A stretch of 64,000 bases of DNA from Eledone cirrhosa (taxonomy: Eukaryota), in contig OZ024756.1 of assembly GCA_964016885.1 (NCBI GenBank), positions 14,446,001-14,510,000 on the forward strand. The letters are read 5' to 3'. A program made the position numbers and the translations under genes. A model generated the notes under the pieces. The model did not search any database, was not told the origin of the DNA, and was given only the letters and a program-made list of their open reading frames with translations. Positions within the stretch are counted from its first letter, which is position 1. The number at the start of each line of letters is the position of its first letter. Below, in pieces: positions 3,655-63,620 of this stretch.

Positions 3655-6060
3655 CATCATCATCATCATCATCATCGTTTAACGTCCGTGTTCCACGCTT
3701 GCATGGGTTTGGACGGGGGTTTTCCCACTTGAGGCAAGAGTGATTTGTCTTGCTCGCATAGGACTGTCTGGCAGGTTTTCTACAGTTGGATGCCCTTCCT
3801 AACACCAACCACATTTACAGTGTGGGGCTGGGAGGTTTTTACCGTGTTGCCTACACGGCCACATTACAGCGTGGACTGTGTGTTTTTTGTCGTGACACCT
3901 ACACGATCTCATTTGTTTCGGCCTGGATGGTATGGCACCAACATAACTTTACATAGGAGGGGGTGGTGTGGATGGGGTGGGGGTGGTGGGACGGGGGGTG
4001 TATTTTGTTAGAGATGCCTACTGGCTGTAGTAGGTTTTACTATGTATTTAGGTAAGACGGGTCTTCTCTATTACTGAGTACCGCCAAAGGTCTCGGTCCA
4101 GTGACATTGTCTTGGAGAGGTGTAAGTGTGTGAGGTCGGAGTTTATCAGCTCGTCCCAGGATTTTCTAGGTCTGCCTATTCCGTGGCTACCGTCTATCTT
4201 TATTGCCCTGCACTTTGTTATACAGCTATCGACTTTCATGCGTAGCCTTCTCTCGAGTAAACAACATCTGATCCCTCTTATTTCTAATTTTTTCCTTAGT
4301 TCGTTTATGCTTTGCCGTTCACGTATATTACTATTACACATCCAGCGGAGCATGCAAGCTTCGTTCCTCTCTAGTCTGCATATATCCTCTGCACACAATG
4401 CCCAGGTCTCACTGCCATGCAACATTACTGTTCGTATGCAGGCATCATACAACCTGCCTTTCATTTTTAGGGAGAACCCTTTAGCGGCTAATAGTGGTAT
4501 AAGCTCTCTGAACTTTTTCCATCCAGTTCTGACTCTAGCTACTGTACTTTCAGAGCACCCTCCCCCACTGCTGATTTTGTCACCCAGGTAACGGAAGCTG
4601 TCCACTATTTCTATAGAGCCCTCTGCGCAGTTGTAAGAGCTAGTATTTTGTGGGCACTTGCTGCTACTTATTGCACCAGAGCACCGCCCACATGTAAAAT
4701 CTATGTTCTTAGTTAGCTTACCTGTGATCCCACTACATCTTTTATGCACCCATACTTTGCATTTGGGACATAAAATGGAGTTTCTACCTACGCCTTTCCT
4801 ACACACTGAGCATGGCCATTTCCCGGAAGGGACCGCCGCCTTATTTTCTTTCCTACAAACTAGAACTTTAGTCTTAGCCAGGTTAATTTTAAGGCCTTTT
4901 GATTCTAGGCCGTGCTTCCATGTTTGGAATTTCTTCTCTAGCTCGGCCATTGATTCAGCTATGAGTGTCAGGTCGTCTGCGTATAGGAGTTGCCATGGGC
5001 AGCCGGTCTTGAACTCCTCTGTTATAGCCTGAAGGGCAATAATAAATAGTAGGGGGCTGAGAACAGAGCCCTGATGGACGCCAACTTTTACGCTAAACTC
5101 TTCACTATATTCGTTGTTAATTCTAACCTTGCTGACTGTTTCTTTATACATGGCTTGTATAGCTCTCACAAGCCATTCGTCGACACCTAGTTTTCTAAGG
5201 GCCCACCAGATAATGGAACGAGGGACTCTGTCGAAGGCTTTCTCCAAGTCAACAAAAGCTAAGTAGAGGGGTTTACCTTTAGCTAGGTACTTCTCCTGTA
5301 GTTGACGTACAATGAAAAGAGCGTCTGTGGTACTTTTGCCTGACACAAACCCGAACTGCATTTCATCTAGGTCAATTCTCTCTCTGATTAGTTGCGCTAT
5401 TACTTTTTCCGTGACCTTCATGACCTGGTCGATTAATTTAATGTCTCTATAGTTACTCCTATCTAGGGCATCTCCTTTACCCTTATAACAGTTAACGATG
5501 ATGCTGCTATGCCAGTCCTTCGGAACAACCCCATTCTGTACGACTTGGTTAACTATCCGGGTGACCATAGTGTGTCCCACCGTGCCAGATGCCTTCAGCA
5601 TCTCAGCAACTATTTCCGAAGGCCCAGCCGCCTTACCCGTCATCATATCCTTGATTGCCTTACTTATTATACTACCCTCGACTAACACTGCTGGTCCCTC
5701 TATTGGGTCGATGTGGGGGAGACTGTCTTTCTCCCATTTATTCTCCTCATTTAGTAGCCTTTCATAGTGACACTTCCAAGCTACCTTCTTATCAGCGTCG
5801 GTGATGGCAAGTACGCCGTCAACATTAAGTACACACTTCTCCCCGACAATATCACGGTTTTCCTTGACACATTGCCTAGCAATCCTGAACACCTCACGTT
5901 TTTGGTCCTCGCGTTGTAGAACATGCTTGAACTTTCTTTCCTCTGCTTCCCTTCTTGCGAAGTACACTTGTCTCCTAGCTTCCCTCCTGGCCACTTGATA
6001 GTCTTCTCTACTTCCCCCATCCCGCCATACTTTCCAAGCCTTAATTGACCCCTCCACCTT
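3655..6060 (-). mobile_element. 5'-truncated RTE LINE: 669-codon RT ORF (4048-6057), 3' UTR and (ATG)n tail
   Basis: RT motifs QFGF, AFVDLEKAFDRV, GVHQGSVLSPLLF, YADD, FRYLG; Cys-rich insert; no endonuclease domain present. Confidence 0.95.
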
Positions 6061-20654: not shown

Positions 20655-20674
20655 CTAAAATGAAACGAAATACT

Positions 20675-23600
20675 GTCAGTAAGGTATGGTTGGCATTAGG
20701 AGAAACTAGCTGTGTTAGTAAGGTAGGGGTTGGCATTAGAAAGGGCAGCTGGCTGTGTTAGTAAGGTAGGGGTTGGCATCAGGAAAGGCAACTGGCTGTG
20801 TTAGTAAGGTAGGGGTTGGCATCAGGAAAGGCAACTGGCTGTGTTAGTAAGGTAGGGGTTGGCATCAGGAAGGGCAGCTGGCTGTGTTAGTAAGGTAGGG
20901 GTTGGCATCAGGAAGGGCAGCTAGCTGTGTTAGTAAGGTAGGGGTTGGCATCAGGAAGGGCAGCTGGCTGTGTTAGTAAGGTAGGGGTTGGCATCAGGAA
21001 AGGCAACTGGCTGTGTTAGTAAGGTAGGGGTTGGCATCAGGAAGGGCAGCTGGCTGTGTTAGTAAGGTAGGGGTTGGCATCAGGAAGGGCAGCTGGCTGT
21101 GTTAGTAAGGAAGGGCAGCTAGCTGTGTTAGTAAGGTAGGGGTTGGCATCAGGAAGGGCAACTGGCTGTGTTAGTAAGGTAGGGGTTGGCATTAGAAAGG
21201 GCAGCTGGCTGTGTTAGTAAGGTAGGGGTTGGCATCAGGAAGGGCAGCTGGCTGTGTTAGTAAGGTAAGGGTTGGCATCAGGAAGGGCAACTGGCTGTGT
21301 TAGTAAGGTAGGGGTTGGCATCAGGAAAGGCAACTGGCTGTGTTAGTAAGGTAGGGGTTGGTATCAGGAAGGGCAGCTGGCCGTGTTTACTAAGGTAGGG
21401 GTTGGCATCAGGAAGGGCAACTGGCTGTGTTAGTAAGGTAGGGGTTGGCATCAGGAAGGGCAACTGGCTGTGTTAGTAAGGTAAGGGTTGGCATCAGGAA
21501 GGGCAGCTGGCTGTGTTAGTAAGGTAAGGGTTGGCATCAGGAAGGGCAGCTGGCTGTGTTAGTAAGGTAAGGGGTTGGCATCAGGAAGGGCAACTGGCTG
21601 TGTTAGTAAGGTAGGGGTTGGCATCAGGAAGGGCAACTGGCTGTGTTAGTAAGGTAAGGGTTGGCATCAGGAAGGGCAACTGGCTGTGTTAGTAAGGTAA
21701 GGGTTGGCATCAGGAAGGGCAGCTGGCTGTGTTAGTAAGGTAGGGGTTGGCATCAGGAAGGGCAACTGGCTGTGTTAGTAAGGTAGGGGTTGGTATCAGG
21801 AAGGGCAGCTGGCTGTGTTAGTAAGGTAGGGGTTGGCATCAGGAAGGGCAGCTGGCTGTGTTAGTAAGGTAAGGGTTGGCATCAGGAAGGGCAGCTGGCT
21901 GTGTTAGTAAGGTAAGGGTTGGCATCAGGAAGGGCAGCTGGCTGTGTTAGTAAGGTAGGGGTTGGCATCAGGAAGGGCAACTGGCTGTGTTAGTAAGGTA
22001 AGGGTTGGCATCAGGAAGGGCAGCTGGCTGTGTTAGTAAGGTAAGGGTTGGCATCAGGAAGGGCAGCTGGCTGTGTTAGTAAGGTAGGGGTTGGCATCAG
22101 GAAGGGCAACTGGCTGTGTTAGTAAGGTAAGGGTTGGCATCAGGAAGGGCAGCTGGCTGTGTTAGTAAGGTAAGGGTTGGCATCAGGAAGGGCAGCTGGC
22201 TGTGTTAGTAAGGTAGGGGTTGGCATCAGGAAGGGCAACTGGCTGTGTTAGTAAGGTAAGGGTTGGCATCAGGAAGGGCAGCTGGCTGTGTTAGTAAGGT
22301 AAGGGTTGGCATCAGGAAGGGCAGCTGGCTGTGTTAGTAAGGTAGGGGTTGGCATCAGGAAGGGCAACTGGCTGTGTTAGTAAGGTAGGGGTTGGCATCA
22401 GGAAGGGCAACTGGCTGTGTTAGTAAGGTAGGGGTTGGCATCAGGAAGGGCAACTGGCTGTGTTAGTAAGGTAAGGGTTGGCATCAGGAAGGGCAGCTGG
22501 CTGTGTTAGTAAGGTAGGGGTTGGCATCAGGAAGGGCAACTGGCTGTGTTAGTAAGGTAAGGGTTGGCATCAGGAAGGGCAGCTGGCTGTGTTAGTAAGG
22601 TAGGGGTTGGCATCAGGAAGGGCAACTGGCTGTGTTAGTAAGGTAAGGGTTGGCATCAGGAAGGGCAGCTGGCTGTGTTAGTAAGGTAAGGGTTGGCATC
22701 AGGAAGGGCAACTGGCTGTGTTAGTAAGGTAGGGGTTGGCATCAGGAAGGGCAGCTGGCTGTGTTAGTAAGGTAAGGGTTGGCATCAGGAAGGGCAGCTG
22801 GCTGTGTTAGTAAGGTAGGGGTTGGCATCAGGAAGGGCAACTGGCTGTGTTAGTAAGGTAAGGGTTGGCATCAGGAAGGGCAGCTGGCTGTGTTAGTAAG
22901 GTAGGGGTTGGCATCAGGAAGGGCAGCTGGCTGTGTTAGTAAGGTAAGGGTTGGCATCAGGAAGGGCAGCTGGCTGTGTTAGTAAGGTAGGGGTTGGCAT
23001 CAGGAAGGGCAACTGGCTGTGTTAGTAAGGTAGGGGTTGGCATCAGGAAGGGCAACTGGCTGTGTTAGTAAGGTAAGGGTTGGCATCAGGAAGGGCAGCT
23101 GGCTGTGTTAGTAAGGTAGGGGTTGGCATCAGGAAGGGCAACTGGCTGTGTTAGTAAGGTAAGGGTTGGCATCAGGAAGGGCAGCTGGCTGTGTTAGTAA
23201 GGTAGGGGTTGGCATCAGGAAGGGCAACTGGCTGTGTTAGTAAGGTAAGGGTTGGCATCAGGAAGGGCAGCTGGCTGTGTTAGTAAGGTAAGGGTTGGCA
23301 TCAGGAAGGGCAACTGGCTGTGTTAGTAAGGTAGGGGTTGGCATCAGGAAGGGCAGCTGGCTGTGTTAGTAAGGTAAGGGTTGGCATCAGGAAGGGCAGC
23401 TGGCTGTGTTAGTAAGGTAGGGGTTGGCATCAGGAAGGGCAACTGGCTGTGTTAGTAAGGTAAGGGTTGGCATCAGGAAGGGCAGCTGGCTGTGTTAGTA
23501 AGGTAGGGGTTGGCATCAGGAAGGGCAGCTGGCTGTGTTAGTAAGGTAAGGGTTGGCATCAGGAAGGGCAGCTGGCTGTGTTAGTAAGGTAGGGGTTGGC

Positions 23601-26600
23601 ATCAGGAAGGGCAACTGGCTGTGTTAGTAAGGTAAGGGTTGGCATCAGGAAGGGCAGCTGGCTGTGTTAGTAAGGTAGGGGTTGGCATCAGGAAGGGCAG
23701 CTGGCTGTGTTAGTAAGGTAAGGGTTGGCATCAGGAAGGGCAGCTGGCTGTGTTAGTAAGGTAGGGGTTGGCATCAGGAAGGGCAGCTGGCTGTGTTAGT
23801 AAGGTAGGGGTTGGCATCAGGAAGGGCAGCTGGCTGTGTTAGTAAGGTAAGGGTTGGCATCAGGAAGGGCAGCTGGCTGTGTTAGTAAGGTAGGGGTTGG
23901 CATCAGGAAGGGCAACTGGCTGTGTTAGTAAGGTAAGGGTTGGCATCAGGAAGGGCAGCTGGCTGTGTTAGTAAGGTAGGGGTTGGCATCAGGAAGGGCA
24001 GCTGGCTGTGTTAGTAAGGTAAGGGTTGGCATCAGGAAGGGCAGCTGGCTGTGTTAGTAAGGTAAGGGTTGGCATCAGGAAGGGCAACTGGCTGTGTTAG
24101 TAAGGTAAGGGTTGGCATCAGGAAGGGCAGCTGGCTGTGTTAGTAAGGTAGGGGTTGGCATCAGGAAGGGCAGCTGGCTGTGTTAGTAAGGTAAGGGTTG
24201 GCATCAGGAAGGGCAGCTGGCTGTGTTAGTAAGGTAAGGGTTGGCATCAGGAAGGGCAGCTGGCTGTGTTAGTAAGGTAGGGGTTGGCATCAGGAAGGGC
24301 AACTGGCTGTGTTAGTAAGGTAAGGGTTGGCATCAGGAAGGGCAGCTGGCTGTGTTAGTAAGGTAAGGGTTGGCATCAGGAAGGGCAGCTGGCTGTGTTA
24401 GTAAGGTAAGGGTTGGCATCAGGAAGGGCAGCTGGCTGTGTTAGTAAGGTAAGGGTTGGCATCAGGAAGGGCAGCTGGCTGTGTTAGTAAGGTAAGGGTT
24501 GGCATCAGGAAGGGCAACTGGCTGTGTTAGTAAGGTAAGGGTTGGCATCAGGAAGGGCAACTGGCTGTGTTAGTAAGGTAAGGGTTGGCATCAGGAAGGG
24601 CAGCTGGCTGTGTTAGTAAGGTAAGGGTTGGCATCAGGAAGGGCAACTGGCTGTGTTAGTAAGGTAAGGGTTGGCATCAGGAAGGGCAACTGGCTGTGTT
24701 AGTAAGGTAAGGGTTGGCATCAGGAAGGGCAGCTGGCTGTGTTAGTAAGGTAAGGGTTGGCATCAGGAAGGGCAGCTGGCTGTGTTAGTAAGGTAAGGGT
24801 TGGCATCAGGAAGGGCAGCTGGCTGTGTTAGTAAGGTAGGGGTTGGCATCAGGAAGGGCAGCTGGCTGTGTTAGTAAGGTAAGGGTTGGCATCAGGAAGG
24901 GCAGCTGGCTGTGTTAGTAAGGTAAGGGTTGGCATCAGGAAGGGCAGCTGGCTGTGTTAGTAAGGTAGGGGTTGGCATCAGGAAGGGCAACTGGCTGTGT
25001 TAGTAAGGTAAGGGTTGGCATCAGGAAGGGCAGCTGGCTGTGTTAGTAAGGTAAGGGTTGGCATCAGGAAGGGCAGCTGGCTGTGTTAGTAAGGTAAGGG
25101 TTGGCATCAGGAAGGGCAGCTGGCTGTGTTAGTAAGGTAAGGGTTGGCATCAGGAAGGGCAGCTGGCTGTGTTAGTAAGGTAAGGGTTGGCATCAGGAAG
25201 GGCAACTGGCTGTGTTAGTAAGGTAAGGGTTGGCATCAGGAAGGGCAACTGGCTGTGTTAGTAAGGTAAGGGTTGGCATCAGGAAGGGCAGCTGGCTGTG
25301 TTAGTAAGGTAAGGGTTGGCATCAGGAAGGGCAGCTGGCTGTGTTAGTAAGGTAAGGGTTGGCATCAGGAAGGGCAACTGGCTGTGTTAGTAAGGTAAGG
25401 GTTGGCATCAGGAAGGGCAACTGGCTGTGTTAGTAAGGTAAGGGTTGGCATCAGGAAGGGCAGCTGGCTGTGTTAGTAAGGTAAGGGTTGGCATCAGGAA
25501 GGGCAACTGGCTGTGTTAGTAAGGTAAGGGTTGGCATCAGGAAGGGCAACTGGCTGTGTTAGTAAGGTAAGGGTTGGCATCAGGAAGGGCAGCTGGCTGT
25601 GTTAGTAAGGTAAGGGTTGGCATCAGGAAGGGCAGCTGGCTGTGTTAGTAAGGTAAGGGTTGGCATCAGGAAGGGCAACTGGCTGTGTTAGTAAGGTAAG
25701 GGTTGGCATCAGGAAGGGCAACTGGCTGTGTTAGTAAGGTAAGGGTTGGCATCAGGAAGGGCAACTGGCTGTGTTAGTAAGGTAAGGGTTGGCATCAGGA
25801 AGGGCAGCTGGCTGTGTTAGTAAGGTAAGGGTTGGCATCAGGAAGGGCAACTGGCTGTGTTAGTAAGGTAAGGGTTGGCATCAGGAAGGGCAACTGGCTG
25901 TGTTAGTAAGGTAAGGGTTGGCATCAGGAAGGGCAGCTGGCTGTGTTAGTAAGGTAAGGGTTGGCATCAGGAAGGGCAACTGGCTGTGTTAGTAAGGTAA
26001 GGGTTGGCATCAGGAAGGGCAACTGGCTGTGTTAGTAAGGTAAGGGTTGGCATCAGGAAGGGCAGCTGGCTGTGTTAGTAAGGTAAGGGTTGGCATCAGG
26101 AAGGGCAACTGGCTGTGTTAGTAAGGTAAGGGTTGGCATCAGGAAGGGCAGCTGGCTGTGTTAGTAAGGTAAGGGTTGGCATCAGGAAGGGCAGCTGGCT
26201 GTGTTAGTAAGGTAAGGGTTGGCATCAGGAAGGGCAGCTGGCTGTGTTAGTAAGGTAAGGGTTGGCATCAGGAAGGGCAGCTGGCTGTGTTAGTAAGGTA
26301 AGGGTTGGCATCAGGAAGGGCAACTGGCTGTGTTAGTAAGGTAAGGGTTGGCATCAGGAAGGGCAGCTGGCTGTGTTAGTAAGGTAAGGGTTGGCATCAG
26401 GAAGGGCAGCTGGCTGTGTTAGTAAGGTAAGGGTTGGCATCAGGAAGGGCAGCTGGCTGTGTTAGTAAGGTAAGGGTTGGCATCAGGAAGGGCAGCTGGC
26501 TGTGTTAGTAAGGTAAGGGTTGGCATCAGGAAGGGCAGCTGGCTGTGTTAGTAAGGTAAGGGTTGGCATCAGGAAGGGCAACTGGCTGTGTTAGTAAGGT

Positions 26601-29600
26601 AAGGGTTGGCATCAGGAAGGGCAGCTGGCTGTGTTAGTAAGGTAAGGGTTGGCATCAGGAAGGGCAACTGGCTGTGTTAGTAAGGTAAGGGTTGGCATCA
26701 GGAAGGGCAGCTGGCTGTGTTAGTAAGGTAGGGGTTGGCATCAGGAAGGGCAGCTGGCTGTGTTAGTAAGGTAAGGGTTGGCATCAGGAAGGGCAACTGG
26801 CTGTGTTAGTAAGGTAAGGGTTGGCATCAGGAAGGGCAGCTGGCTGTGTTAGTAAGGTAAGGGTTGGCATCAGGAAGGGCAACTGGCTGTGTTAGTAAGG
26901 TAAGGGTTGGCATCAGGAAGGGCAACTGGCTGTGTTAGTAAGGTAAGGGTTGGCATCAGGAAGGGCAACTGGCTGTGTTAGTAAGGTAAGGGTTGGCATC
27001 AGGAAGGGCAGCTGGCTGTGTTAGTAAGGTAGGGGTTGGCATCAGGAAGGGCAACTGGCTGTGTTAGTAAGGTAAGGGTTGGCATCAGGAAGGGCAGCTG
27101 GCTGTGTTAGTAAGGTAAGGGTTGGCATCAGGAAGGGCAGCTGGCTGTGTTAGTAAGGTAGGGGTTGGCATCAGGAAGGGCAACTGGCTGTGTTAGTAAG
27201 GTAAGGGTTGGCATCAGGAAGGGCAACTGGCTGTGTTAGTAAGGTAGGGGTTGGCATCAGGAAGGGCAACTGGCTGTGTTAGTAAGGTAGGGGTTGGCAT
27301 CAGGAAGGGCAGCTGGCTGTGTTAGTAAGGTAGGGGTTGGAATTAGGAAGGGCAACTGGCTGTGTTAGTAAGGTAGGGGCTGGTATCAGGAAGGGCAGCT
27401 GGCTGTGTTAGTAAGGTAGGGGTTGGCATCAGGAAGGGCAGCTGGCTGTGTTAGTAAGGTAGGGGTTGGAATTAGGAAGGGCAACTGGCTGTGTTAGTAA
27501 GGTAGGGGTTGGCATCAGGAAGGGCAACTGGCTGTGTTAGTAAGGTAGGGGTTGGCATCAGGAAGGGCAACTGGCTGTGTTAGTAAGGTAGGGGTTGGCA
27601 TCAGGAAGGGCAACTGGCTGTGTTAGTAAGGTAGGGGTTGGCATCAGGAAGGGCAGCTGGCTGTGTTAGTAAGGTAGGGGTTGGAATTAGGAAGGGCAAC
27701 TGGCTGTGTTAGTAAGGTAAGGGTTGGCATCAGGAAGGGCAGCTGGCTGTGTTAGTAAGGTAGGGGTTGGTATCAGGAAGGGCAGCTGGCTGTGTTAGTA
27801 AGGTAGGGGTTGGAATTAGGAAGGGCAACTGGCTGTGTTAGTAAGGTAAGGGTTGGCATCAGGAAGGGCAACTGGCTGTGTTAGTAAGGTAGGGGTTGGC
27901 ATCAGGAAGGGCAACTGGCTGTGTTAGTAAGGTAGGGGTTGGCATCAGGAAGGGCAACTGGCTGTGTTAGTAAGGTAAGGGTTGGCATCAGGAAAGGCAA
28001 CTGGCTGTGTTAGTAAGGTAGGGGTTGGCATCAGGAAGGGCAACTGGCTGTGTTAGTAAGGTAGGGGTTGGAATTAGGAAGGGCAACTGGCTGTGTTAGT
28101 AAGGTAGGGGCTGGTATCAGGAAGGGCAGCTGGCTGTGTTAGTAAGGTAGGGGTTGGCATCAGGAAGAGCAGCTGGCTGTGTTAGTAAGGTAGGGGTTGG
28201 TATCAGGAAGGGCAGCTGGCTGTGTTAGTAAGGTAGGGGTTGGAATTAGGAAGGGCAACTGGCTGTGTTAGTAAGGTAAGGGTTGGCATCAGGAAGGGCA
28301 GCTGGCTGTGTTAGTAAGGTAGGGGTTGGCATCAGGAAGGGCAACTGGCTGTGTTAGTAAGGTAGGGGTTGGCATCAGGAAGGGCAACTGGCTGTGTTAG
28401 TAAGGTAGGGGTTGGCATCAGGAAGGGCAGCTGGCTGTGTTAGTAAGGTAGGGGTTGGAATTAGGAAGGGCAACTGGCTGTGTTAGTAAGGTAAGGGTTG
28501 GCATCAGGAAAGGCAACTGGCTGTGTTAGTAAGGTAGGGGTTGGAATTAGGAAGGGCAACTGGCTGTGTTAGTAAGGTAAGGGTTGGCATCAGGAAAGGC
28601 AACTGGCTGTGTTAGTAAGGTAGGGGTTGGTATCAGGAAGGGCAGCTGGCTGTGTTAGTAAGGTAGGGGTTGGAATTAGGAAGGGCAACTGGCTGTGTTA
28701 GTAAGGTAAGGGTTGGCATCAGGAAAGGCAACTGGCTGTGTTAGTAAGGTAGGGGTTGGCATCAGGAAGGGCAACTGGCTGTGTTAGTAAGGTAGGGGTT
28801 GGCATCAGGAAGGGCAGCTGGCTGTGTTAGTAAGGTAGGGGTTGGCATCAGGAAGGGCAGCTGGCTGTGTTAGTAAGGTAAGGGTTGGCATCAGGAAGGG
28901 CAACTGGCTGTGTTAGTAAGGTAGGGGTTGGAATTAGGAAGGGCAACTGGCTGTGTTAGTAAGGTAGGGGTTGGAATTAGGAAGGGCAACTGGCTGTGTT
29001 AGTAAGGTAGGGGTTGGCATCAGGAAAGGCAACTGGCTGTGTTAGTAAGGTAGGGGTTGGAATTAGGAAGGGCAACTGGCTGTGTTAGTAAGGTAGGGGT
29101 TGGAATTAGGAAGGGCAACTGGCTGTGTTAGTAAGGTAGGGGCTGGTATCAGGAAGGGCAGCTGGCTGTGTTAGTAAGGTAGGGGTTGGCATCAGGAAGG
29201 GCAACTGGCTGTGTTAGTAAGGTAGGGGTTGGAATTAGGAAGGGCAACTGGCTGTGTTAGTAAGGTAGGGGCTGGTATCAGGAAGGGCAGCTGGCTGTGT
29301 TAGTAAGGTAGGGGTTGGCATCAGGAAGGGCAGCTGGCTGTGTTAGTAAGGTAGGGGTTGGCATCAGGAAGGGCAACTGGCTGTGTTAGTAAGGTAGGGG
29401 TTGGAATTAGGAAGGGCAACTGGCTGTGTTAGTAAGGTAGGGGCTGGTATCAGGAAGGGCAGCTGGCTGTGTTAGTAAGGTAGGGGTTGGCATCAGGAAG
29501 GGCAGCTGGCTGTGTTAGTAAGGAAGGGCAACTGGCTGTGTTAGTAAGGTAGGGGCTGGTATCAGGAAGGGCAGCTGGCTGTGTTAGTAAGGTAGGGGTT

Positions 29601-29875
29601 GGCATCAGGAAGGGCAGCTGGCTGTGTTAGTAAGGTAGGGCAACTGGCTGTGTTAGTAAGGTAGGGGTTGGTATCAGGAAGGGCAGCTGGCCGTGTTTAC
29701 TAAGGTAGGGGTTGGCATCAGGAAGGGCAGCTGGCTGTGTTAGTAAGGTAGGGGTGGGCATCAGGAAGGGCAGCTGGCTGTGTTACTAAGGTAGGGGTTG
29801 GCATCAGGAAGGGCAACTGGCTGTGTTAGTAAGGTAGGGGTTGGCATCAGGAAGGGCAACTGGCTGTGTTAGTAA
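20675..29875. repeat. 43-bp minisatellite, about 210 copies
   Basis: Unit GTTAGTAAGGTA(G/A)GGGTTGGCATCAGGAAGGGCA(G/A)CTGGCTGT. Confidence 0.98.
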
Positions 29876-29927
29876 GAGAACTACCAAACAGGGATAGCAA
29901 TGAAATAAACATGTTATGTTTACTTAC

Positions 29928-39408: not shown

Positions 39409-39469
39409 TATTCTATTATATATATTTCAAGGGTACCAAAACTTTGGTACGCTCTCATCAGATAAAATA
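39409..39469 (-). ncRNA. Type I hammerhead motif (left arm of foldback)
   Basis: Reverse complement of 39596-39656. Confidence 0.8.
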
Positions 39470-39595: not shown

Positions 39596-39656
39596 TATTT
39601 TATCTGATGAGAGCGTACCAAAGTTTTGGTACCCTTGAAATATATATAATAGAATA
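39596..39656 (+). ncRNA. Type I hammerhead motif (right arm of foldback)
   Basis: TATTTTAT-CTGATGA-GAGCGTACCAAA GT TTTGGTACCCTT-GAAA-TATATA-TA-ATAGAATA, overlapping AATAAA. Confidence 0.82.
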
Positions 39657-48959: not shown

Positions 48960-49330
48960 TTGGCACTCAGATGGTGGATGGGTGCTACACGAGAATGCTG
49001 AGGATGGCTCTGAACATTAATCAGTATACACTGAGGATGAAAAACTCAGAGCTGTATGGGAGCCTCCCAAAAGTCAGCTCAAAAGTGACACAGAGGAGAC
49101 TGGGGTTAGCTGGACATGCTCACCGACATCCAGAGTTGACATTGCACTCGGTGCTCCTGTGGGAGCCTCTACATGGATGCACTGGAAGAGGAAGACCAAG
49201 GTTAACGTATGTTGATGCCCTAAGGACAGACACTGGTCTGTTGGAGACGCAGGACATGGCAGTGATAATGAGGGACAGAGACCGCTGGAGAGAACTCGTC
49301 CATGGATCTCGGGAATTTTACCCGCTCTAG
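48960..49330 (+). mobile_element. LINE 3' fragment (RTE-related); short inverted copy at 53072-53148
   Basis: DGCYTRMLRMALNI...RRLGLAGHAHRH...GRGRPRLTYVD...DRDRWR. Confidence 0.75.
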
Positions 49331-53209: not shown

Positions 53210-53269
53210 TATTCTATTATATATATTTCAAGGGTACCAACATTTGGTACGCTCTCATCAGATAAAATA
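53210..53269 (-). ncRNA. Type I hammerhead motif (same family as 39409/39596)
   Basis: Same core and stems; differs only in the stem II loop. Confidence 0.8.
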
Positions 53270-60413: not shown

Positions 60414-60705
60414 AAAGGATAACAAGGACGATATATATATATAGTAATAATAATAAATTTGAAGACTAAAATCCACTGAGGGCTCGATAAGGATAAATAT
60501 ATGTCAAATATATAAGAACCGTAGAGCAAATATTTATTAAAATAACAGATAAAAGTTTAAGCAAAGAATCGCTGCTTGCACCCTTAACGGTGAAAGCAGC
60601 GATTCTTTGCTTAAACTTTAATCTGTTATTTTAATAAATATATATATATATGTCCCAAGGCTCTGATACCATCAACACTATAAACACAGAGCTGGCATAT
60701 CTAAG

Positions 60706-60761
60706 ACTGCCTGATGAGGTCATAGCCATTCAATGGCTATCATCGAAATATATATAGCAGT
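60706..60761 (+). ncRNA. Type I hammerhead motif
   Basis: ACTGC-CTGATGA-GGTCATAGCCATT C AATGGCTATCATC-GAAA-TATATA-TA-GCAGT, then AATAAA. Confidence 0.83.
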
Positions 60762-60822
60762 AAATAAAGGATTATGAGTTCATGCAATTGATATGTTTCG
60801 TTCATGCAATTGATATGTTTCG

Positions 60823-60859
<37 letters not shown>

Positions 60860-61223
60860 TGGCTGCCAACTCGTTTTCGAGTACGGCCACTACTTTATAT
60901 CCATGTAGGAGAACCCCTACCGATGCGCTGAACGAGTGTGACTTTTTAGTCCAGCCAGCGACTTGAAAACTCTGGTACAAACACTACACTTGTGACAATT
61001 ATTGACACACAGTGCTGGGCCCATGGTGCCATGTGACGACAAGTGCAGAGCGATCTCCAGATATAAAGCAATGCCTGTGCCGTGATGCTTTTATAGTGAG
61101 CAAAGGCACTGCACAAAGCCAGTCCCACTCTCTTAACCAAGATGATATTTACCAAAAAGAAGAACAAGTCAACATCATTGGATACCATCAGGGTTGCAGG
61201 TGTTATATCTAAGTTTCCACTTG

Positions 61224-61303
<80 letters not shown>

Positions 61304-61511
61304 ATATATACAAGTGGAAACTTAGTAAAATCGAAGCTTTGGCTGTGGCCAAGCAAAGTCGACCTACAATAAGGAATGAGTAGCAAAGCACTCAATAAGG
61401 GTAGGTCCTTAGAGTAATAACATTACGTTTAAAAGCTTGACAAATTGGAAATTGCGGCAGGCAAAAAACAACCACACAATACCAAAACAACGAAAGAACT
61501 AATCAGGTTAA

Positions 61512-61559
<48 letters not shown>

Positions 61560-61955
61560 AAAGAAAGATGTTTATTGGCTGGCTCGCTGGTTAAATCACA
61601 CGAAAACTACACACGCACACACAAATACATACACACTCATCTAAAGAGAGAGATACAATTAAAGTGTTAGATATTCAGAGAGAGAGAGACGTCCCACAAA
61701 AGTGATGGTGGAGTTGGTGGGGTAGAGATAGTAGTGTGGGTGGGGGGAGGGGGTTAGAGATGGCGGTAGGGCGGTGTTGAGGTAGTGATGGCGGTGGTGG
61801 TGAGTAGTGATGGTAGTGTGGGGGGGGGGGGGGGTAGAGATGGTGGTAGGGTGGTGGTGGTGGATTGATGGGGGGTGGGGGTGGGGGTGGGAGGTGGTAG
61901 TGAGGCTCTGGTGGCGGTTGCTTGACGTAGCAATTGTTGTATGTGACGGTGGCGG

Positions 61956-61993
<38 letters not shown>

Positions 61994-63476
61994 TTACGAC
62001 GACGACCACTACTACTACTACGACGACCACTACCACTACGACCACAACCACTACCACCACTACTACTACTACCACCACCACTAACACCACCACCACTACC
62101 ACCACCACTACTACTTGAACAATTAGTAAATTAAGATATTAAGTATTTATTTCATGTCCGGCATCTATATGTGATGAAGACAAGATTGCGTTGTTGTTCC
62201 CAACCAATGGAGTCCAATATCCGGTTCCCAGTAATGCATTTATTCTTATTCATGCTTGTATATGCTCTTAACTGATGATGGTGTCGTAGGGACGCCATGT
62301 GGCGTGATATACAGCGTGTCTTGAACATTTACATCTGACAGGGCTTGCCCCTCTCCATGTCGTAACACAGGCGATTATTTTTTACCCAAATGAGATAAAG
62401 CCTGTCGTACCCCCAAAATGTATACACACTTTGATTAGAATAGTGTTGAAGTGTGTATACATTTTTTTGGGGACACCCATAGAAATATTTATTTAGTTTT
62501 GACAACGGCGTCGTCTGTACTCAATATTTTCTCTGCTTCCAAGGAATTTCTCTCACGAAGACGGAATAATTCTTCCAATATTGGTTCGTTTAATTCATTG
62601 AAATAATTAATTGCTTCTACTTTTGGCACAAGGCCAGCAATTATCCAGTGTATTACTGGTACTTTATTTTATCGACCCCGTAAGGATGAAAGGCAAAGTT
62701 AACCTTGGCAGGATTTGAACTCAGAATGGCAAGGGCCGTAACTCTATGCGTCAAAGCATGGCGTCCGACCCTCTACCGATACTGCCAATCCCCCATGTTG
62801 TCTCTTAATTCCAGAAACCGGGGCTGGGGATCGAATTATGGGTAAAACTTATTTTAGTCTGTCTAACTTATATCCTCCAAATCAAGGTTTTGGATTATGT
62901 TCAATATATTTGATCGCTTCTCTCAGTTGATAATTTATGTTTTCATTGAGATGACTTAAAATATTAGAGACAAATAATTGTTTCTACTTTAGGCACAAGG
63001 CCAGCAATTACCCAGTGCATTACTGGTACTTTATTTTATCGACCACGTAAGGATGAAAGGCAAAGTCAACCTCGGCGGGATTTGAACTCAGATCATAAAG
63101 GGACGTAACTATGCTGGAAAGCATGGCGTTCGACCCTCTACCGATACTGCCAATCTACCGATATATATATATGTGTGTGTGTGTGTGTGTACGCAAAAGG
63201 TAAACAGAAATAAAGCAAATGACACAGTACAATGAAGAAATATATTATTAATTTACGTTTGGTATAGTCCTTCAGACACACAAACACACGTACACATCCA
63301 TACACACACTCATGCACCCCCCCCACACACACACACATATATATATATTTTTGAGTTTATGTTGACTCCAGTTCCTCATTGAAATAACAACCCAACAAAG
63401 AACTGGGCATATCAGAGTATTGACAATATTATACACCTCAACAACATATGTACTTGTCTATACCATACTAATTCAA

Positions 63477-63531
63477 ACTGCCTGAAGAGGTCACAGCCAA
63501 AGATGGCTGTCACTGAAATATATATAGCAGT
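63477..63531 (+). ncRNA. Type I hammerhead motif (relative of 60706)
   Basis: ACTGC-CTGAAGA-GGTCACAGCCA AAGA TGGCTGTCACT-GAAA-TATATA-TA-GCAGT-AATAAA; compensatory stem II change relative to 60706. Confidence 0.83.
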
Positions 63532-63575
63532 AATAAACGAAGCTAAATTTTAATCATTTGACTTTTATTTAACTT

Positions 63576-63620
<45 letters not shown>

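Follow-up and report, generated by a model that had tools for sequence, protein, structure and literature searches.

Metazoan Penelope-like elements (PLEs) carry minimal hammerhead ribozymes of type I, with a short stem I, a long stem II and a palindromic stem III that needs a dimer; they are located in the pLTRs, occur as thousands of mostly solo copies and as inverted pairs, and form variable families with covariation (Cervera and de la Pena 2014, PMC4209133; this and the other sources cited below were covered in part). The PLE hammerheads themselves, their dimer design and the existence of within-genome families with compensatory changes are already published in that work. The two hammerheads described here, A and B, share all of these features. 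Unlike in the published set, stem II here consists of 3 bp, a C•C mismatch and a further 5-10 bp; it lacks a bulged extra base, G10.1-C11.1 is not fixed, and stem III is a purely AU 8-mer that is the same in all families.

The Hydra-clade elements (Craig et al. 2021, PMC8557442) agree with those described here in several respects: their proteins have the DKT and RWK motifs, a CxCX5C linker and, at the C terminus, GIY-YIG with CxxC and CxH; they target (TA)n; and the basal position of stem II in their hammerheads is a loose N•Y. U•U is common at this loose first pair in their hammerhead rows. In the 20 rows covered, stems II are continuous, stems III have 3-4 bp, and there is no C•C, unlike here. 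These elements are generally shorter than 3 kb, whereas the unit described below measures 4.1 kb and has a 3' UTR of 1.1-1.2 kb. Poseidon of Anolis (Frangieh et al. 2024, PMC11167929) resembles the present elements in that its hammerhead is part of the pLTR and precedes the ORF start, and in having two alternative 3' ends (a tail) downstream of the cut site, but it belongs to another clade, and its tail is 30-40 nt long compared with ~90 nt here. Animal non-LTR retrozymes (Cervera and de la Pena 2020, PMC7229834; Li et al. 2026, preprint) are also of type I, with a weak stem III and very many copies. They are short non-coding tandem arrays, whereas the copies here are dispersed truncated ends of coding elements; no short non-coding head-to-tail array with a hammerhead in each unit was found within the window.

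Hammerheads of the window

The window, i.e. the whole stretch of 64,000 nucleotides of Eledone cirrhosa contig OZ024756.1 that was analysed, contains the two minimal hammerheads A and B and further copies of a family C (Table 1). In A and B the type I core (C3 U4 G5 A6 N7 G8 A9, G12 A13 A14, A15.1-U16.1, H17; rule of PMC3088659, in the part covered) is complete, stem II is composed of 3 bp, the C•C and 7 bp, stems I and III are identical, and the strand is the same.

Table 1. Coordinates of the hammerheads and of the truncated element ends that hold them (positions in the window).
Feature	Positions	Strand	Remark
Copy A, family A minimal type I hammerhead	60706..60761	+	predicted cut after A60756 (AUA)
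Copy A, parts	stem I ACTGC 60706-60710 / GCAGT 60757-60761; CTGATGA 60711-60717; GAAA 60745-60748	+	
Copy A, distal helix of stem II	ATAGCCA 60722-60728 / TGGCTAT 60734-60740	+	
Copy A, C•C mismatch	C60721•C60741	+	closes the distal 7-bp helix of stem II
Copy A, ATATATAT palindrome	60748..60755	+	intermolecular stem III
Family A truncated Penelope-like 3' end holding copy A	60651..60828	+	between (TA)n runs; contains an upstream hairpin, the hammerhead, AATAAA and a 22-nt internal duplication at 60778-60823
Copy B, family B minimal type I hammerhead	63477..63531	+	predicted cut after A63526 (AUA)
Copy B, parts	stem I 63477-63481 / 63527-63531; CTGAAGA 63482-63488; GAAA 63515-63518	+	
Copy B, distal helix of stem II	ACAGCCA 63493-63499 / TGGCTGT 63504-63510	+	
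Copy B, C•C mismatch	C63492•C63511	+	closes the distal 7-bp helix of stem II
Copy B, ATATATAT palindrome	63518..63525	+	intermolecular stem III
Family B truncated Penelope-like 3' end holding copy B	63364..63580	+	followed by (TA)n
Family C hammerhead with C•C	39598..39654	+	right arm of inverted pair
Family C hammerhead with C•C	39411..39467	-	left arm of inverted pair
Family C hammerhead with C•C	53212..53267	-	

The stem II arms of both copies lie where the first-pass annotation had placed them, stem I and the GAAA are kept as it stated, and the differences that it read between A and B, namely a U-A to C-G double change, a changed loop and a changed N7, are seen in the sequence, together with two pair-keeping single changes. 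The annotation had also listed a change of the first stem II pair from G-C in A to G-U in B. The change is real, and its weight as evidence is small, because C stands at that place in 19 of 65 copies of family B and the position is paired in 12 of 15 families only. The second stem II pair, absent from that account, differs too (G-U in A, G-C in B). The C•C that had been ascribed to the fourth stem II position of the family at 39596 is present in the copies at 39.4/39.6 kb and 53.2 kb, for which narrower limits of 39425-39461 (-), 39604-39640 (+) and 53226-53261 (-) also apply.

Single-strand folds of the window hammerheads have z values from -1.9 to -2.6, and 14 loose core matches are found in the window, with 2.4 expected by chance. 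One core-pattern match (48998-49042) sits inside another repeat, and its stems do not form; it is probably fortuitous. Rfam gives no hammerhead match at the gathering score in the window, and between 60500 and 63700 none at E<=10, where only sub-threshold hairpin matches are returned.

A and B are separate truncated insertions into (TA)n and not one element. Their reading as the two pLTRs of a single element was rejected, as the families differ and no ORF lies between them; other repeats make up the DNA between the copies, in which nothing matches the element protein. A look-alike of a tRNA primer-binding site at 60661-60672 was also rejected, as it is one arm of the family A hairpin.

The neighbourhood is rich in other repeats. 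At 60431-60640 another (TA)n-inserted family shows a near-perfect 50-bp hairpin from an inverted truncated end. The segment 60858-61225 is a young repeat (95-97% identity to other loci, sharp start at (TA)n), whose compact, hairpin-rich end allows two alternative pairings and may be a structured RNA. A further (TA)n-flanked repeat at 61310-61520, with copies in loci L040, L136 and L114, has a start that makes up a short inverted repeat together with 61205-61225. A SINE-like repeat that is abundant (>100 matches among the fetched loci) is present twice, at 62600-62790 and 62970-63160. Elsewhere in the window, a tRNA-like Rfam match (31 bits) at 2802-2859 is probably the head of a tRNA-derived SINE, and 20674-29876 is an array of a 43-nt tandem unit (>200 copies, ~95% identity) with a strong G skew.

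Parent elements and genomic copies

The structure of the parent element can be read from locus L108, in which a family B hammerhead (1030) is followed by an ATG (1282), a frameshifted ORF that ends near 3930, and a second hammerhead (5127), giving a unit of 4.1 kb. The ORF contains the RWK, DKT, YRDD, CxCX5C, YIG, CxxC and CxH motifs; the linker, YIG, CxxC and CxH are readable in L106 too. For family A, a related frame on the same strand ends ~1,130 nt upstream of the hammerhead in L105 and L106. In the two families the hammerhead is found 1.1-1.2 kb downstream of an RT-endonuclease frame. Location in terminal repeats flanking an RT-endonuclease ORF is seen in L108 for family B, the window copies being truncated and devoid of an ORF.

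The first-pass annotation described the flanks of A and B as much more diverged than the hammerheads. More diverged they are, yet the two families are homologous: identity is 74% in a 194-nt stretch around the hammerhead and 68%, at the DNA level, in a 420-nt stretch of the coding region; for most of the 3' UTR no alignment of A with B was obtained. By sequence, the two families are sisters among Hydra-like Penelope retroelements, the assignment to the Hydra clade resting on the motif list, with reference proteins compared by eye only. With Pfam, only a sub-threshold GIY-YIG match was returned, and RT fragments were not recognised. The top named protein relative of a linked ORF is from Argonauta hians.

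The core pattern combined with the AU palindrome has 47,852 matches in the 3.0-Gb genome (94 for the reversed pattern), i.e. one motif per 63 kb, clustered in (TA)n. The exact family B pattern has 6,765 genome matches and the family A flank motif 3,177; a DNA search with copy B, subject to a common-word filter, returned none. Matches of the pattern in metagenomes (24 loci) and viruses (2 loci) were rejected as instances of the motif, as they do not fold accordingly. Copies are dispersed or inverted, with inverted 5'-truncated pairs and an optional 3' tail present. All of them span the cut site; they end ~50 or ~140-150 nt beyond it, and AATAAA is found within 28 nt in 284 of 330 copies.

The optional tail of ~90 nt (just past the hammerheads in L107, L110, L070 and L225) is alike in families A and B, and in L108 it runs into the 5' UTR of the next unit. 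The two families also have in common an upstream hairpin (60655-60700 and 63369-63407) with different arm sequences, whose end is marked by a GG(Y)ATRTC-like motif; many families have this motif again, at 26-78 nt upstream of the core. On contig C1, family B hammerheads in direct orientation occur ~500 nt apart (34397994 and 34398488; 35423285 and 35423785), and these pairs are possible short retrozyme-like units.

Covariation of stems I and II across families

The family set comprises 338 distinct motif copies from the fetched loci, deliberately enriched for rare variants, of which 330 were assigned to 15 hand-seeded families (two with 2-3 copies only) and 8 were left unassigned. Columns were fixed by their offset from the core boxes, without alignment fitting, which gives 12 pair columns in 15 families.

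Among the 180 family cells 167 are paired (93%). When the 3' letters are dealt out at random the number is 117.7 ± 4.4 and none of 10,000 permutations reaches 167, while slid registers give 27-51% paired. In a tree null, with columns evolving independently, the means are 120 and 127, and none of 3,000 simulations reaches 167 at either of two rates; parsimony on the tree requires at least 24 co-changes. The tree was built from the same columns as were tested, and the test is not R-scape. That 12 of 12 pairs show a double change was rejected as evidence, because 2,869 of 10,000 permutations also reach 12.

The first stem II pair (G10.1-C11.1) is loose, with 3 families having G-C, 5 G-U, 4 A-U, 2 U•U and 1 A•A; U•U at the closing pair is known in natural hammerheads (PMC7229834, PMC3088659, in the parts covered). 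No unpaired extra nucleotide is found 5' of stem II, as the unshifted register pairs 15 of 15 families at positions 2 and 3, and the shifted register 13 and 6 of 15, respectively (counted by eye).

The difference between A and B had been taken as evidence of selection on RNA structure. Two copies alone prove little, since only one double change separates two transposon families; in the larger set of 15 families the pairing is far above the permutation, slid-register and tree-aware nulls, and the view that the base pairs of stems I and II are kept by selection on RNA structure is supported.

The C•C mismatch of stem II

Position 4 of stem II is unpaired in all 15 families, as C•C in 14 and as C•A in one. 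The majority base is C on the 5' side in every family and on the 3' side in 14, and the distance of the mismatch from the core is fixed while stem II with its loop spans 22-31 nt. Across the genome, 44,038 of the 47,852 matches (92%) have C at both sites; the 5' C is missing in 2,169 and the 3' C in 1,818, i.e. mutants at each C make up ~4% of copies and are mostly scattered changes across families. The paired C-G form occurs in 244 of the 47,852 copies, scattered over families, and a suspected C-G subfamily was rejected (98 C, 1 G and 1 T among 100 of 796 matches listed). The family with C•A has 8 copies (L160, L167, L168 and L323-L327) and A•A at the first stem II position.

On the tree the 5' C never changed and the 3' C changed once, compared with 1-6 changes in paired columns. 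With the mean stem rate, the probability that two columns together change at most once is 0.009, and with the rate of the neighbouring columns it is 0.09; the invariance of the two Cs is only suggestive. No invariant G partner was found in the flanks of stem I.

The C•C at position 4 is absent from 56 rows of Fig. S3 of PMC4209133 (inspected by eye) and from 20 Hydra-clade rows of File S2 of PMC8557442, a count that leaves out ~6 rows. Published searches could miss it because they used continuous-helix descriptors. No prior report was among the papers that literature searches listed; Lunse et al. 2017, figures, and the supplements of PMC4209133 or of bioRxiv papers may hold one. Within the literature covered, the fixed C•C is a new aspect of a known kind of hammerhead, A and B being ordinary truncated insertions.

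Level of selection

Copies of families A and B were chosen through a motif in the flank, without regard to the core (B, 70 of 5,787 places; A, 70 of 3,177), as the first among the matches listed, all on contig C1. Inverted partners were dropped (4 B, 2 A), the window copy was added, and badly mismatched windows were masked. Variants present in at most 2 copies are called private, and alleles present in at least 4 copies shared.

Private variants are as frequent in the hammerhead as outside it. In family B they fill 36 of 3,349 hammerhead cells (1.07%) and 69 of 6,299 cells of flanks and loop (1.10%, p=1.0), and in family A 74 of 3,462 (2.14%) and 66 of 3,733 (1.77%, p=0.27). Shared alleles are found in 1 of 102 hammerhead columns vs 20 of 155 other columns (p=3e-4), the single one in the hammerhead being a pair-keeping U/C at 11.1. 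This signal comes almost wholly from family B (1 vs 18; family A 0 vs 2, p=0.23). In the contigs of a further run, X2, which may not be independent of the assembly, 10 of the 12 differences listed are upstream, 1 is in the loop, and 1 is the U/C at 11.1. The hammerhead is intact in 56 of the 67 copies of family B and in 48 of the 69 of family A.

Private mutations at the flank rate mean that individual copies, A and B included, are without host-level constraint. Inherited variants avoid the ribozyme while private ones do not, which indicates that selection acted on the transposing source elements. The genomic copies decay neutrally and the constraint lay on the source elements. In this conclusion, taken jointly with the identity of the elements, we have high confidence.

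Dimers and the proposed mechanism

In the predicted folds, stem III of a monomer costs ~3 kcal/mol, and the 8-bp helix of the palindrome common to all families forms in 3 of 3 cofolds, with the first pair of stem II loose in the drawn register. Dimers in which the strands are fully swapped are 4-6 kcal/mol less favourable than the cofold minimum. The A and B folds are predicted to cut only as dimers. Small PLE-associated hammerheads reportedly do cleave as dimers, as the title of the 2017 study by Lunse and colleagues has it.

If a source element is arranged in tandem, its transcript carries two hammerheads, which would swap strands through the 8-nt AU palindrome, and cutting at both repeats would give a unit-length RNA, which may circularise or be rejoined; rejoining has been proposed before (PMC4209133, in the part covered). 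The cut site lies within every copy, so the RNA that served as template was either uncut or rejoined, and reverse transcription would start on it ~50 or 140-150 nt downstream of that site. The C•C may make cutting conditional by docking either a tertiary partner or the protein of the element itself; this is the favoured role for it, though on this step our opinion is evenly divided. The lizard Penelope hammerhead cleaves only with its protein, and its mutants still inserted in vitro (PMC11167929, in the part covered), which supports protein gating and also calls for caution on the necessity of the hammerhead for insertion. Taken as a whole, a reading of the motifs as Penelope 3'-end hammerheads that cut as dimers, with selection on the source elements and the C•C as likely contact site, appears to us quite probable.

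A bolder version is doubtful. Here the C•C would be the docking site by which the RT-endonuclease switches on a silent hammerhead, and the families would form a split-ribozyme network cutting read-through transcripts, since a single AU palindrome serves as stem III in all 15 and stem I is common to some of them. If true, tens of thousands of dispersed copies would cut read-through RNA, e.g. in the 2,770-nt stretch between A and B.

Alternative explanations

The C•C could instead be a brake or hinge, weakening or bending stem II so that cleavage is slow and some RNA persists uncut to serve as template, with the identity of the bases secondary. Pairing at position 4 would stabilise stem II by a predicted 6.4 kcal/mol, which fits a brake, as do the cut site being spanned by all copies, the dominance of unprocessed RNA as template in the lizard element (PMC11167929, in the part covered), the lack of any amplified paired subfamily, and the tolerance of C•A in one family. 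We nevertheless hold this explanation to be rather unlikely: it predicts varied mismatches and positions, yet 14 of 15 families have C•C at one and the same position. The fixed identity and position of the mismatch despite a variable stem II fit a specific contact better than generic weakening, without being a proof, and the C•C is likely such a contact site. Less probable than a brake is a frozen accident inherited from one ancestral element, with the pairs selected and the mismatch merely tolerated. All families come from one lineage in one genome, the columns next to the C•C changed only twice on the tree, so that 0 and 1 changes are not decisive (p ~0.09), and the published Hydra-clade rows covered often have the same 5' C, paired with G. 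Against this, the stem columns changed 1-6 times on the same tree, mutants at either C do arise, and neither a pair nor, at the 5' C, a transition has become fixed in any family.

Two further alternatives bear on the double changes and on the pair A and B. Correction of hairpins at the DNA level, by template switching in short inverted repeats, could produce double changes with no RNA selection, and these elements readily form inverted repeats on insertion; however, G-U pairs, which are mismatches in DNA, persist together with the C•C, the strands of stem I covary at a distance of 45 nt, and inherited changes avoid the unpaired core, which makes this explanation very improbable. It is just as hard to credit that A and B are host-selected ribozymes acting together on a 2.8-kb read-through RNA. 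Their strand is the same, their stems I and III are identical and their cores intact, and an A:B heterodimer can be drawn at -35.0 kcal/mol, but most copies of either family are intact anyway and decay neutrally, the spacer is a patchwork of unrelated insertions without a matching ORF, and neighbours are common at the genomic density of the motif and its clustering in (TA)n.

Biological significance

A class of ~48,000 predicted hammerheads escapes Rfam in this genome. Why Penelope elements carry hammerheads is a puzzle, as these ribozymes cleave slowly and one in vitro assay of insertion could do without them. Inherited changes that avoid the ribozyme, while dead copies decay neutrally, are population evidence that the fold matters during transposition, and the invariant C•C offers a single site where precise and inexpensive mutations could show whether cleavage is gated by the protein of the element.
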